A stretch of 30,824 nucleotides of DNA. Origin: Candidatus Omnitrophota bacterium (GTDB taxonomy: Bacteria > Omnitrophota > Gorgyraeia > Gorgyraeales > Gorgyraeaceae). The stretch lies in assembly GCA_026387215.1 (NCBI GenBank), contig JAPLMC010000036.1:1-30824 (forward strand). The letters run 5' to 3'. Position 1 is the stretch's first letter. Every line of letters begins with the position of its first letter. The notes beneath the pieces were generated by a model. It saw only the letters and a program-made list of their open reading frames with translations. It searched no databases and was not told the DNA's origin. The position numbers and the translations under genes were made by a program. Shown here one piece after another: positions 7,285 through 30,824 of this stretch.

Positions 7285-7348
7285 GTCCCTCGCGACTTAT
7301 GTATAAAACCATGGTCGCTCGGGACGAATTTGCCTTCTGCAAATTCGG
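7285..7348 (-). repeat. Two-hairpin CGAG repeat, copy A (directly 3' of tRNA-Ser-GCT)
   Basis: CCG AATTTGC AGAAG GCAAATT C GTCCCGAG CGAC CATGGTTTTATACATAA GTCG CGAGGGAC. Confidence 0.9.
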
Positions 7349-14640: not shown

Positions 14641-14703
14641 GCTCCTCGCGACTGCTTATAAAACTATGGTTGCTCGGGACGAATTTTACTTCGTAAAATT
14701 CGG
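14641..14703 (-). repeat. Two-hairpin CGAG repeat, copy C (directly 3' of tRNA-Ser-CGA)
   Basis: CCG AATTTTAC GAA GTAAAATT C GTCCCGAG CAAC CATAGTTTTATAAGCA GTCG CGAGGAGC. Confidence 0.9.
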
Positions 14704-14970: not shown

Positions 14971-15291
<321 letters not shown>

Positions 15292-26213: not shown

Positions 26214-27467
26214 CTAAACTTTTTCCTCTTCGTTTCCTAACCTTATTAATTTTATCAAACCTATAATAGAAAATAAAATCCCTGTTGTTATAAGGACCCA
26301 ATCTCCGCCTATCTTCTCAGCTATAAGAGACGCAAGAAACATAAATAAAAGAAATCCTACATGCATCACTATCTCGAGAGAACTAAAAATCCTCCCTCTC
26401 ATTTCATCATGCGTTACCTCATGAAGCAGAGTGTTGGAAGATACGATTATGGGGGCGCTAAAAATTCCAAGTACTATTGATAATAGGCCGGCTATAAAAA
26501 AAGAAGGTATAAATTTTAGGCATATAGTAAATAGCACTATCGTTAATCCTGTAGTTAATAGCCCAAAATTGATTACCTTTCTCTTTGAAAACTTTGATCC
26601 AAACTTCCCGTATATAATGGAGCCCAGAAATAACCCTACTCCTAAAAACATCACAAGCAACCCGAGATGCTTAGTAGATGATTGTAGCGCTTTCTGTATA
26701 AAAACTATTATCACTATGTAAATAGAGCCAACCCCTGCCATAATAAGAAACATTGTGTTTGCAACCATTCTTATGTCTTTATGACCTTTCAAATACTCAA
26801 TGCCCTCTTTTATATCTCCAACAATAGTTCTCCTGGAGATATCTGTAAGCTTCGTGCTGGCTCCGCTCAGCTCTATATTTTCTTTTAATTTAACTGCTAC
26901 AAAAAATACCAGTATTGCGGATATAAAATAACTTGCTGAGTCTATATAAAATCCTGCCTGAGGCCCAAACACAGCAACTATTATTCCGCTAAACCCAAAG
27001 CTAACTATCGTAGCAATCATCATAGTTGTAGAGGATAGCGAATTCGCTAAAAGAAGTTTATCTTTATGGACAATATCTGGAATTATAGATAGTTTTGAAG
27101 GTACAAAAAATCTTGTTACAGAAAAAATTATAAATACGATTATGTATATTGGAACCATGCTAGTGGAGTATTTAACAATCAAGGGAATCGTAAGTACCAG
27201 CAAGCCTCTTATGATGTCACAAGCAATCATAGTAGTTCTCCTATTCCATCTATCCACATATATGCCTGCTATAGGACCTATAATAAATACCGGGATTATT
27301 GTAAAGGAGAGAAGCTTTGCCAACTCTATTGTAGAGCCAGGAGTGCGGATATAAATAAGCCCTATCAAAGCCATTTGGTTCAGTCTGTCTCCAAAATTTG
27401 AAACTATTTGGGCAAACCATAGGAGAAAAAAATTTTTATTTTTTAAAAGTTCTCGGACGTGGGCCAT
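26214..27467 (-). CDS. MFS transporter (12 TM, DHA3/MFS_3-like)
   Basis: NFFLLWFAQIVSNFGD, GIYVDRWNRR motif A, 12 hydrophobic segments. Confidence 0.9.
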   Translation of the reverse strand: MAHVRELLKNKNFFLLWFAQIVSNFGDRLNQMALIGLIYIRTPGSTIELAKLLSFTIIPVFIIGPIAGIYVDRWNRRTTMIACDIIRGLLVLTIPLIVKYSTSMVPIYIIVFIIFSVTRFFVPSKLSIIPDIVHKDKLLLANSLSSTTMMIATIVSFGFSGIIVAVFGPQAGFYIDSASYFISAILVFFVAVKLKENIELSGASTKLTDISRRTIVGDIKEGIEYLKGHKDIRMVANTMFLIMAGVGSIYIVIIVFIQKALQSSTKHLGLLVMFLGVGLFLGSIIYGKFGSKFSKRKVINFGLLTTGLTIVLFTICLKFIPSFFIAGLLSIVLGIFSAPIIVSSNTLLHEVTHDEMRGRIFSSLEIVMHVGFLLFMFLASLIAEKIGGDWVLITTGILFSIIGLIKLIRLGNEEEKV

Positions 27468-27512
27468 TAAAATTAACCTTTTTCTAAAACCTAGATAGTT
27501 GAAATAGTTAAC

Positions 27513-27579
27513 ACCCCTTGCAGCATAATAGAAAAGACAAGGGCTACTCGGGACTCATTCTGCCTATTCGGCAGAATTT
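27513..27579 (-). repeat. Two-hairpin CGAG repeat, copy F (follows the duplicated tRNA-Thr 3' end)
   Basis: AAATTCTGCC GAATA GGCAGAAT GA GTCCCGAG TAGC CCTTGTCTTTTCTATTAT GCTG CAAGGGGT. Confidence 0.8.
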
Positions 27580-27600
27580 TGGAACCGATGAGTGGATTTG
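27580..27600 (-). repeat. Duplicated 3' end of tRNA-Thr (att-like direct repeat)
   Basis: CAAATCCACTCATCGGTTCCA matches tRNA-Thr 27794-27814 (CAAATCCACTCATCGGCTCCA) at 20/21 nt. Confidence 0.85.
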
Positions 27601-27604
27601 CGAA

Positions 27605-27665
27605 CCCAGCCGTAAGGTTGGGCGAGTCTCGAGCGGCAATATTTTTACTTTGCGCCGCGAGGGAA
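27605..27665 (+). repeat. Two-hairpin CGAG repeat, copy E
   Basis: CCCAGCC GTAA GGTTGGG CGA GTCTCGAG CGGC AATATTTTTACTTTGC GCCG CGAGGGAA. Confidence 0.75.
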
Positions 27666-27730
27666 ACCGCCGATTAAGCAAATACTTAAACAGCTCTCAT
27701 TTGTATTTAATACAAAGTTGCTCATCAGTA

Positions 27731-27793
27731 TTCCCTCGCAACTACATGCAAAATCATAGTTGCTCGGGATCAAATTTTACTTTGTAAAATTTG
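27731..27793 (-). repeat. Two-hairpin CGAG repeat, copy D (directly 3' of tRNA-Thr)
   Basis: CA AATTTTAC AAA GTAAAATT TG ATCCCGAG CAAC TATGATTTTGCATGTA GTTG CGAGGGAA. Confidence 0.9.
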
Positions 27794-27869
27794 TGGAGCC
27801 GATGAGTGGATTTGAACCACCGACCTGAGCTTTACGAAAGCACTGCTCTACCAACTGAGCTACATCGGC
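27794..27869 (-). tRNA. tRNA-Thr(CGT)
   Basis: GCCGATG acceptor, anticodon loop TTCGTAA, GGTTCAAATCC, encoded CCA; 76 nt. Confidence 0.95.
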
Positions 27870-27950
27870 ATGTATTGTATTTTCAATGTGTTACGATAAA
27901 TATCAATTCTGTAATAATTTGATTAGTAACGGTATTGTGCACGATATTTA

Positions 27951-29003
27951 CTAATTTAAAGTCTCTACTGCTTGTCTGTTATATTCAGAATTAGGATTAG
28001 CATATTTCATAGTTGTTTTGATATCTGCATGCCCTAGTAAATTTTGAACAGTAACTAAATTTACATTATTTTCAATCAGTCTTGTAGTAAAAGTTGCCCT
28101 AGTATCATGAAATCTGCATTTATTGATACCAGACCTTCGTAATGCATTATTAAATGCTGTCTTTATAGATTCTATTGGCTTGCCACAATCATCGCAAAAA
28201 ACATATTCACTGTTTACATTTATAGCACATTTTAGTACTTCTTTCAATTTATTATTAATGGGGATTGTTCTAATCTTACCACTTTTTGTTTTTGTAAGTG
28301 TTATTATCTCTTTTTCTAAATCTACATTTTCCCATTTAAGATTAAGAATTTCTCCCAGTCTCATGCCTGTATTCAATGCTGCTATAATAATAGATTTTAA
28401 GTGATTGCAAGAGGCGTTTAATAACTTTTCTTCTTCATCTTTTGAAATTACACGTATTGCACGTTCTTCTATTTTAAATTGCTTTATATTAATCATTGGG
28501 CTTCGCATCATCTTACCTAATTTCACTGCTTCGTTTAACATATGCCTTAAAACTATAGTTTCTCTGTTTACTGTTGATTTTTTTACATATTTAAGCCTAT
28601 CATACATATAATTTTCAATTTCGTTAGGAATTATCTTATTTAAAGTTTTATTACCAAAATATTTTATTAAACATTTAACTATTATTTTTTCTCTACTATA
28701 AGAACGTTTTGATTCTTTAATTTTCTTTAAATAATCTATGGCAAAATTCTTAAAAGTTATTCTATCTTTAATAGCCGTAAGGCTTAATTTACCTTCTCTT
28801 ACATCTGTTCGCCTCTTTTCAAGTTTATAACGAGCTTCTGTTCTAGTTCTGCCGCCATGCTCCCATATCCGCTTCTTATCCAGATAATAATCAATCATAT
28901 AATAATTTTCTCTTTTTTTGTATATTCCCATAATAGCACTCTCTATTCTCTCTTGGTGGTGGAGGATATCACATGACCTCGGTAAGTCAAGATATATCCC
29001 CAT
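27951..29003 (-). CDS. Tyrosine recombinase/integrase
   Basis: LNTGMRLGE (R), KTKSGK (K), FHDTRATF (HxxR), LLGHAD (H), TMKYA (Y), all intact. Alternative start ATG 28931. Confidence 0.93.
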   Translation of the reverse strand: MGIYLDLPRSCDILHHQERIESAIMGIYKKRENYYMIDYYLDKKRIWEHGGRTRTEARYKLEKRRTDVREGKLSLTAIKDRITFKNFAIDYLKKIKESKRSYSREKIIVKCLIKYFGNKTLNKIIPNEIENYMYDRLKYVKKSTVNRETIVLRHMLNEAVKLGKMMRSPMINIKQFKIEERAIRVISKDEEEKLLNASCNHLKSIIIAALNTGMRLGEILNLKWENVDLEKEIITLTKTKSGKIRTIPINNKLKEVLKCAINVNSEYVFCDDCGKPIESIKTAFNNALRRSGINKCRFHDTRATFTTRLIENNVNLVTVQNLLGHADIKTTMKYANPNSEYNRQAVETLN

Positions 29004-29187
29004 CTATTTCCTCATTAACTACTCTTTTAGTAAGCACCCATTTATCTAAATCCAGTAAGTCAAATTTCAACAGCCTACCCATCTTTATATAAGGTATCTG
29101 CTTCTGGTGCGTCCAAGAGTATATTGTGCTCACTTGAATACCCAGATACCCTGAAGCTTCTTTTATATCTATATATCTCTTATCCAT
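28987..29187 (-). CDS. Excisionase/AlpA-like HTH DNA-binding protein
   Basis: IDIKEASGYLGIQVSTIYSWTHQKQIPYIKMGRLLKF...LDKW, HTH_17-like; directly upstream of int. Confidence 0.85.
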   Translation of the reverse strand: MDKRYIDIKEASGYLGIQVSTIYSWTHQKQIPYIKMGRLLKFDLLDLDKWVLTKRVVNEEIDGDIS

Positions 29188-29388
29188 TATTGGAATCCTT
29201 TATTAGAGACAACTTCCTGAAAAAACTGTATTTTACCCCACATATAAGCTATAAAGACCGCCCATATTCAAATCCAACGCAAACCAAGCACATCCAAATA
29301 GTGTTGCTTATAATATATATACATACCAGCATTCTCTATCTATTACTTTAATGCTGTTCTGTAAAAGATAATTATATATAAGATAAGT

Positions 29389-29560
29389 TTGCATTTTGCA
29401 CTTAGCATAACTTATTTAAATATATAATGTTACAAGTGCAATCTAAAATTTACACTGAAATAGTCTTTATATTACTTAAATCTTTAAATTTCAAGCTGTT
29501 ACATAAGTGCAAGCTAGTTTTACTGCAACTTTGCACTTGCATTTACACTTATTTTTGCAC
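29389..29560. repeat. Iteron-like cluster, candidate replication origin
   Basis: About ten TTGCAC/TTGCAT/TTACAC/GTGCAA units in both orientations around AT-rich spacers, directly after the replication gene. Confidence 0.6.
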
Positions 29561-30824
29561 CTACGTAATGCTCCAATAAACACCTTTGCCTTTCTTTTGT
29601 TTAGCATCTAATGTCTTTATTTTTTTTCTCTTTTTAGCTTCTTTTATAAAATTTCGAACTGTCCCGTCTGACACACCGATAGACTCCTTTGCCTTTTCTA
29701 CAATGTCTTTTTGAGAAATACCATCTTGGCTACTTGCTTTTACAATGTCTACTATTTTATTAATCGCAGACTCTTTTTTATCGGCTGCCGAACATTCGTA
29801 ATAGAGATTATTGTTTAGCTTGATTTTTAATGGTCTAGGATTTGCTGCATTTCTTAATTCCCATGTAACTTCTATTGAGTCGCCAGAAGATTTTAAAATA
29901 ATATAAGAGTCTCCCCAATCAAAGATAGTACTAGAACCCCTGAGTACATGACCGCCTTGTTTTTCCCCTTTACCATGATGATGAACTATAATTATACTGA
30001 TTTTATATTTATCAATCAGTTCGTCAAATTTATCAAAAACCTGCTTCATCGCTTGCGTTGAATTCTCCTCTTTATTATGAAATTTGTATAAAGGGTCAAA
30101 CATAACAACTTCATACCCTTTCTCTCTTATCCATTTTTCTAATTGAGAGAAATGGCTTGCGTTAAGGATATCAAAACCTCTTACATTGCAAATTGTAAAA
30201 TTCTCTTTATCTACTTCGCCTATAGATTCAAGCATTAATTTAAGTCGAGCATAAAGTGCATGGCTACTGATTTCTTGTTGGATATACAGAACTTTTGATT
30301 TCTTTATTACTCGTATATTTAAGAAGTCTCTGCCTGTAGCAATACATAAACCTAGATTCATAACAAAATTACTTTTGCCTAATTTGCCCATGCCGCTGAT
30401 AATTGTTTTTGAATCGTAATTTATAATACCATCTCCCCAGATACTTTCTATTTTTTCATCTTTAAAATTATCTATAAAATCTTTTAAAACTACAGGCTGA
30501 CCAAAATCTTTATCTTCATTTAAAATATTACCTTTTTTTAAAAAGCATGCTTCGTCGCAAAATTCCTGCATATAACTTGCTTCACATCCAAATCCTGTAT
30601 AAGCACCTTCATAAGCAGAGTCTACTTTCTTAAATACTTCTGTTTCGCTTAATGGTGGTTTGCATCGCTCTTTATTCAATCTTTGAAGCATTTCTAGTGT
30701 TGCTTCCTTTAAATAACTATTCTTCTTAAATATTATTGCTAATCTATAAAGTATGTTATCTCTGATGCCTTCTAGTATGTCACTTTTTGATATTTTTTTA
30801 ACGCAGGGAGGTAATTTTCCTCTT
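29561..30824 (-). CDS. Primase C-terminal domain fused to RecA-like AAA_25 helicase (N-terminus beyond window)
   Basis: The frame stays open to the window edge (RGKLPPCVKKI...EGIRDNILYRLA...CKPPLSETEV...GFGC...FCDEAC). Walker A GMGKLGKS, Walker B VMFDP, IVHHHGK, RGSS, DWGD. Confidence 0.85.
   Translation of the reverse strand, partial: RGKLPPCVKKISKSDILEGIRDNILYRLAIIFKKNSYLKEATLEMLQRLNKERCKPPLSETEVFKKVDSAYEGAYTGFGCEASYMQEFCDEACFLKKGNILNEDKDFGQPVVLKDFIDNFKDEKIESIWGDGIINYDSKTIISGMGKLGKSNFVMNLGLCIATGRDFLNIRVIKKSKVLYIQQEISSHALYARLKLMLESIGEVDKENFTICNVRGFDILNASHFSQLEKWIREKGYEVVMFDPLYKFHNKEENSTQAMKQVFDKFDELIDKYKISIIIVHHHGKGEKQGGHVLRGSSTIFDWGDSYIILKSSGDSIEVTWELRNAANPRPLKIKLNNNLYYECSAADKKESAINKIVDIVKASSQDGISQKDIVEKAKESIGVSDGTVRNFIKEAKKRKKIKTLDAKQKKGKGVYWSIT

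Follow-up and report, generated by a model that had tools for sequence, protein, structure and literature searches.

What kind of DNA separates a tRNA gene from a second copy of its own 3′ end? The question is posed by the tRNA-Thr(CGT) gene of the stretch analysed here (the window, 30,824 nt), which represents most of one contig of a 1.05-Mb MAG (G000; 114 contigs, 37.7% G+C, assembly 91% complete) from a freshwater lineage with a small genome, far from the Enterobacteria. The gene occupies positions 27794–27869 on the minus strand, is complete with an encoded CCA and was called by ARAGORN and by the Rfam tRNA model (67.5 bits). Its last 21 nt (27794–27814, minus; tRNA positions 56–76, reaching from T-loop base C56 to CCA) are repeated on the same strand at 27580–27600 with a single mismatch (20/21), again ending in CCA and with C56 at 27600; the two copies are 214 bp apart from start to start. 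Given the base composition of the window, a match at least this good (20/21) has a chance of ~4e-9 of arising somewhere within 400 nt. An earlier note on this DNA had reported the repeat, two hairpin copies (D and E) facing each other between its halves, a third copy (F) beyond the second half, and no credible gene in between. That description proved correct in every item: the tRNA calls and the 20/21 match bear out the repeat, hairpins were located at all three copies, and the sole ORF overlies these hairpins and has no Pfam match.

Read from the tRNA in its own sense, the order is hp1, hp2, a spacer, a short match to tRNA positions 47–55, copy D, a module with a GC hairpin, the repeat and copy F. 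The inserted unit begins at the first base after CCA and lies on the strand of the tRNA. Copy E consists of hp1 (27771–27793, minus), an A/T-rich hairpin directly after CCA with a 10-bp perfect inverted repeat, and hp2 (27733–27768, minus), a CCCGAG...CGAGGG hairpin with a tandem G-A internal loop, both as predicted by folding. The spacer that follows (59 nt; 27674–27732, minus) includes ACTGATGAG at 27721–27729, predicted to pair with the duplicated acceptor strand. Directly before copy D, the nine nucleotides 27665–27673 (minus) match tRNA positions 47–55 (T-stem 5′ strand plus TT) at 8/9; GGT(T) within this match may belong to the repeat consensus instead. A partial copy of tRNA-Thr that begins further upstream than position 47 was rejected, the likeness of the 59-nt spacer to tRNA-Thr positions 1–46 not being significant (p = 0.45). 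Copy D (27628–27663, plus) is an inverted hairpin of the hp2 type, predicted by folding and belonging to the subtype with a GTAAAAAT loop, which faces copy E across 69 nt. The right-end module (27601–27627, minus), composed of ACTCG, a GC hairpin (27605–27622) and TTCG, abuts the second repeat. The position of the 47–55 match would place copy D and the GC hairpin between T55 and C56 of the partial tRNA copy. Beyond the repeat, copy F (27514–27579, minus) is a complete hp1+hp2 unit (hairpins 27557–27577 and 27514–27552), 63% identical to copy E, and the start of an MFS transporter gene is found 46 nt further on. Copy F is probably the older trailer of the tRNA; a single hp1+hp2 unit is what stands between tRNA-Thr and the MFS gene in the relative G004.

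The sole ORF at the unit (27518–27787, plus; 89 aa, TTG start) runs over the hairpins and was rejected as a gene, having no Pfam family and lying where the DNA of the relatives is quite different. Treated as RNA (281 nt), the unit folds at −94.3 kcal/mol (z = −5.8 against shuffles), and the fold is closed by a 9-bp helix between 27721–27729 and the duplicated acceptor strand. A hammerhead ribozyme, suggested by CUGAUGAG at 27721–27728, and a tmRNA-like reading of the trailer were both discarded, as no Rfam match was returned at gathering score or at E ≤ 1; in the predicted fold the hammerhead-like CUGAUGAG pairs with the duplicated acceptor strand instead.

The neighbourhood of tRNA-Thr and the MFS gene is kept through genus, family and class, and the unit is absent at this locus in most congeners. 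Empty sites, at which the tRNA is followed by 7–18 nt and then by the MFS gene, were found in G003, G007, G009 and G022; the earlier note had expected such alleles to be lacking if the segment were a simple tandem duplication. The larger relatives that it had proposed to look for at tRNA-Thr are represented by the congener G008, in which the same frame (Type II) holds an 89-aa GIY-YIG ORF (PF01541, 2e-21) between both hairpins, at the position taken by the 59-nt spacer in G000. The right-end module has its counterpart at the matching place in G008, and the displaced tRNA end is followed there by 8 nt and the MFS start, as at the empty sites. A T-loop variant private to G008 (AAGTCC) is present in both of its copies; hence the repeat was made from, or homogenised with, the local tRNA. 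A strict pattern for the right end, run over 41 genomes, recovered only G000 and G008, together with one false match within coding DNA of G016. None of the loci compared among 15 relatives was seen to have two intact tRNA-Thr genes in tandem. A unit of another build (Type I), with an exact 20- or 30-nt repeat, is present at tRNA-Thr in G012 and G021, and G006 has the matching empty site for the unit of G012.

Read mapping had also been proposed as a check. Contigs of four public runs on 27200–28100 contain no joint that skips the 214 bp, contigs being prone to drop rare variants. Contigs of the likely source run and of a second study cover 27502–27793 with 0–1 differences, which shows the presence and stability of the unit only. 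In run X3, a low-depth contig from a 97%-similar strain joins 27492 to 27793, that is, the MFS leader to the tRNA 3′ end; this joint skips 300 bp, has only 20 letters on one side and was not counted as evidence. In the closest relatives (G012, G005 and G006; loci L012, L023 and L024) a conserved ORF of ~130 aa lies between tRNA-Thr and the MFS gene. The repeat unit takes the place of this ORF in G000; both arrangements have in common the final 16 nt ahead of the MFS start.

The hairpins themselves belong to a dispersed family. The hp2 motif is present in 37 copies in G000, 74 in G008, 44 in G010 and 26 in G005, with 0–2 in the controls (0–1 in that for G000), and in 1–4 copies in the congeners G001, G006, G007, G011 and G012. 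At least eight tRNAs of G000 are followed by an hp1+hp2 unit directly against CCA, and inverted units abut the GGGAGG ribosome-binding sites of >20 housekeeping genes (frr, clpP, rpmA, rpmE, pheS and others). The outer CCCGAG/CGAGGG is fixed and the inner stems covary. Because copy number varies and the inner stems covary with a fixed outer stem, hp1+hp2 behaves as a dynamic, REP-like mobile family rather than a conserved regulatory site; its units could nevertheless be general punctuation rather than element ends. Other examples lie at 7287–7323 and 14644–14687 of the window and at about 35 other places in G000. Hairpins of the copy D type (GTAAAAAT loop) are also found nested in an outer CCCGAG...CTCGGG palindrome (G000 contigs C4:19120, C78:1994, C80:4842, C25:16869 and C8), as if one hairpin element had been inserted into another.

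Like REP/REPIN sequences and their RAYT partners (PMC3116915, PMC3337134), the family consists of dispersed imperfect hairpins with covarying stems, forms inverted doublets with a short spacer, differs strongly in copy number and flanks one small nuclease gene in some genomes; copies E and D constitute such an inverted doublet. The flanked gene is a Y1 HUH transposase in the RAYT/REPIN case, whereas it is GIY-YIG here, and a tRNA end is not duplicated by REPINs. No Y1 (HUH) transposase flanked by hp repeats was found, the only PF01797 gene of G000 having a different hairpin family. This PF01797 gene (Y1_Tnp, RAYT-like, 294 aa; C1:6237–7121 of G000) has a third hairpin family on both sides (AACTTGACA...TGTCAAGTT), which also trails tRNA-Arg and tRNA-Ala; the arrangement resembles a classical REP/RAYT system, here in a genome of 1 Mb.

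Duplicated tRNA ends are not confined to tRNA-Thr. Five of the 22 tRNAs detected in G000 repeat their own last 20 nt downstream, 116–211 nt away: Leu(tag), Gly(ccc) and Arg(tcg) do so exactly, and Lys(ctt) and Thr(cgt) complete the set. All five repeats start at T-loop position 56/57. The Thr and Lys(ctt) units are hairpin-built (Type II), the latter without an ORF, and have an odd right end (GGG, TTCGC) in common. The partial tRNA copy of the Lys(ctt) unit extends as far back as position 36 (17/18, p ~0.001); it occupies the same relative place as in Thr and is likewise split at T55|C56 by an inverted hairpin. Type I units follow Leu, Gly-ccc and Arg in G000, with a variant after Gly-gcc. Their structured cores of ~100–115 nt are highly similar across different tRNAs and different genomes, near-identical cores being found after Thr, Gly, Leu, Arg, Met and Tyr tRNAs, each with the end of its own tRNA. 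The left end of a Type I unit is an 8–10-nt complement of the T-loop and T-stem 3′ strand of the host tRNA and varies by tRNA; the right end, corresponding to the right-end module of Type II, reads GAC, GC hairpin, CGCC and then the repeat. In G000, units swell an Arg-Lys-Leu-Gly tRNA cluster whose G010 counterpart is compact, with spacers of 68, 1 and 54 nt.

Some further features of the Type I units may be recorded here. They are ~100–155 nt long and comprise a conserved loop GAC-NAAWAGGA, TGGCCGAC, a GC hairpin and the last 19–30 nt of the tRNA. Loci with such units are G000 contig C14:4700–6800 (L131), G000 contig C25 just below 11145, L012, L015, L087, L111 and L124. Behind tRNA-Met of G010 at least three Type I units stand in tandem, each ending in the tRNA-Met 3′ end. 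The Type I architecture is that of the E. coli RtT units, but it has no Rfam match.

In E. coli, tRNA-linked repeats (TLRs) have been known since 1978; those described by Egan and Landy in 1978 and by Rudd in 1999 reportedly include the RtT units behind tyrT/tyrV. In strain K-12, tyrV, which served as our control, is followed by three 178-bp units, each of which ends in the exact last 19 nt of tRNA-Tyr and contains a 10-nt complement of this end piece. K-12 has 22 TLRs at ten loci, whose hallmark is an identity of the 3′-terminal 18–19 bp with the 3′ end of the RNA upstream; those behind 5S rRNA are transcribed and processed, the repeat has been suggested to be a processing signal, and the TLRs were described as without known function in 2021 (PMC8144298). 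The Thr unit, too, lies directly downstream of a tRNA on the same strand, and its terminal identity amounts to 20/21 at 27580–27600. Features in common with the E. coli TLRs are thus the position and strand, the last 18–21 nt representing the tRNA 3′ end from the T-loop, an internal complement of the duplicated piece and the possibility of standing in tandem (as at tRNA-Met of G010); unlike them, the Thr unit is built from dispersed hairpin repeats and has a relative with a GIY-YIG ORF. The RtT covariance model (Rfam RF00391) gave no match at E ≤ 1 on locus L001, which covers the tRNA-Thr locus, and L131 and L111, both loci with Type I units, stayed without a match even at E ≤ 10; the same model scored four E. 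coli units at 133–138 bits. Alignment to the E. coli TLRs scored no better than shuffles, the likeness consisting of one 17-mer in one Type I unit. Judged by its sequence, the Thr unit would work like a TLR and fits the descriptive definition; we do not class it as homologous to the E. coli TLRs.

The GIY-YIG gene recurs in similar settings. Both G010 and G004 have a tRNA followed by a Type I unit, the repeat, hp1, hp2 and GIY-YIG; in G010, at the tRNA-Gly and tRNA-Val loci, the GIY-YIG ORF is followed by inverted hp2 and hp1. The architecture of the G008 unit recurs at tRNA-Val of G032, a member of a different family, where it comprises a GIY-YIG ORF and a repeat of 13 nt. The two genomes richest in hairpin copies are those with hairpin-flanked GIY-YIG ORFs, an association seen in n = 2 genomes only. 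Neither a GIY-YIG homologue (tblastn and genome search of the 91%-complete assembly) nor a reverse transcriptase was found in the G000 assembly. Hairpin flanks as a general trait of GIY-YIG genes were rejected, as many GIY-YIG ORFs of relatives lack them and resemble normal syntenic genes; the nuclease could be cargo, or could simply happen to lie adjacent. A limited body of literature contained nothing relevant on GIY-YIG proteins in connection with REP/REPIN sequences or with tRNA-gene insertion. A second GIY-YIG subfamily (MKE.WKWY.Y.IECKD) has its own palindromic repeats on both sides, GTCGAGAAG / GCTCGAACAATATT (L121, L123 and L129 in G010, G004 and G007).

We give an even chance to the explanation of the Thr segment as a TLR-type unit without an ORF, assembled from a REP-like two-hairpin family, the full form of which carries a GIY-YIG nuclease gene. 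In this model, the DNA gained directly behind tRNA-Thr re-creates the T-loop-to-CCA end with its own 3′ end; one hairpin unit points away from the tRNA, and the second, inverted, abuts the duplicated end together with the GC hairpin. The Thr unit would be the ORF-less counterpart of the G008 unit, in which the GIY-YIG gene lies between the same two hairpins. We infer that the unit would be read through with the tRNA, its second tRNA-type 3′ end acting as a second 3′-processing signal, as has been proposed for the E. coli TLRs. The hairpin units would spread in trans through a nuclease that cuts hairpins or T-arms, for which the GIY-YIG protein is a candidate; because this protein was not found in the G000 assembly, the Thr copy would now be immobile.

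A different origin had been favoured in the earlier note, namely a tRNA-targeting integrative element reduced to its ends and linked to integrase-type recombination, the adjacent integrase included. What holds of this is a gained, discrete, non-autonomous segment bracketed by a duplicated tRNA 3′ end; the tie to integrase-type recombination found no support. That the segment is an insertion remnant with attL and attR, its cargo mostly deleted, made or mobilisable by a tyrosine integrase such as the neighbour, we consider unlikely. The identity block used by tRNA-targeting integrases, which is left behind as a repeat, usually runs from the T-loop or anticodon loop up to the 3′ end, and direct repeats over the tRNA 3′ block are indeed present, from the T-loop in Thr and from the anticodon loop in Lys (36–76). 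The att sites of P4-type integrases are the T-loop-to-3′-end block of a tRNA, alike in position and length. Cis-mobilisable elements (CIMEs), reportedly defined in Streptococcus thermophilus work as attL–attR remnants of integrative elements, are also short non-autonomous segments, lying between direct repeats at a conserved gene's 3′ end, and have empty and filled alleles, as observed for the Thr unit. Moreover, the neighbour, 81 nt away from the tRNA, is a phage-type tyrosine integrase (350 aa; 27951–29003, minus; PF00589, 2.3e-37) accompanied by an HTH_17 gene. However, the integrase, the HTH_17 gene and an AAA_25 gene are on the 5′ side of tRNA-Thr, outside the repeats, and integrases of this family stand 80–100 nt upstream of a co-directional tRNA at eight loci (in G000, G010, G019, G031, G014, G009 and two distant MAGs). 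In five relatives, direct repeats of the 5′ 26–47 nt of tRNA-Thr lie 0.5–11.7 kb upstream of the gene, and integrase fragments occur on its 5′ side in G006, G014 and G017. This geometry, the 5′-half repeats and the fragments together indicate that islands enter tRNA-Thr on the 5′ side and that the integrase belongs to one of them. In contrast to CIMEs and P4-type sites, the Thr unit has no integrase inside, the larger versions found have no recombinase or recombination module between the T-loop-to-CCA repeats and hold only GIY-YIG, and the repeat is specific to each of several tRNAs, one core being found at many tRNA species. G008 and G012 carry T-loop repeats, yet only Xer-like recombinases were matched in them; the recombinases of G000 are this integrase and two Xer-like genes. 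As five G000 tRNAs show the duplication with nearly identical cores, one tRNA-specific integrase cannot explain the units, and the near-identical Type I cores at six tRNA species require that the repeat be made from the target. The integrase link is favoured by G010, where a 37%-identical integrase precedes the tRNA-Met with its tandem Type I units, an arrangement that may be a coincidence.

Two other accounts start from the RNA and from the tRNA gene itself. A function at the RNA level, in which the structured trailer with its acceptor-like closing helix and UCCA end is a processed small RNA or a processing or decoy element, strikes us as distinctly improbable as the explanation of the segment. 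It would agree with the fold (z = −5.8) and its closing helix onto the duplicated acceptor strand, with the T-loop/T-stem complement of 8–10 nt that changes with the tRNA in Type I units and E. coli TLRs, with the single base by which the unit differs in the contigs of the second study, and with the transcription and processing of E. coli TLRs behind 5S rRNA (PMC8144298); the absence of the unit at this locus in most congeners and the inverted occurrence of the hairpin family before protein genes argue against it. This reading is compatible with the explanation as a TLR-type unit, and the origin of the unit is secondary to it. A local tandem duplication of tRNA-Thr and its trailer, with the second copy decayed and then invaded by a hairpin repeat, appears very unlikely. 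The partial copies, which may extend back to position 47 in Thr and 36 in Lys, and the hp1+hp2 trailer behind each copy would be expected from it, but the trailers are only 63% alike as against 95% for the tRNA piece, which disfavours a plain tandem duplication; nor does it sit well with a spacer without significant likeness to tRNA positions 1–46, a gene at this place in the G008 unit, and the odd right end (GGG, TTCGC) that the Thr unit has in common with the Lys unit.

A more general proposal can be put forward tentatively, with a rather low probability in our estimate: a small GIY-YIG nuclease and hairpin repeats would form a partnership that inserts at tRNA T-loops and 3′ ends, copies the tRNA end and leaves TLR-type footprints. 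Such a partnership would be so far undescribed and the GIY-YIG counterpart of RAYT/REPIN; were it real, the origin of the E. coli tRNA-linked repeats would be explained as well. Unlike E. coli, the lineage of G000 offers filled and empty alleles in close relatives, two types of unit spread over many tRNAs, a version with a nuclease gene and an internal stretch that varies with the target tRNA, and these features together make the origin of tRNA-linked repeats testable. The locus also advises caution, as a duplicated tRNA 3′ end beside an integrase is not always the att site of that integrase.

Two observations concern other parts of the window. Features of the 5′-side island lie within 27870–30691, and its far end in G000 is beyond the contig; the corresponding loci are L010, L013, L016, L019, L022, L111–L116, L025 and L031. 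An Rfam group I intron (61.8 bits) was detected at 15054–15238 on the minus strand, ~270 nt upstream of tRNA-Ser(cga); the earlier note had placed it in tRNA-fMet.
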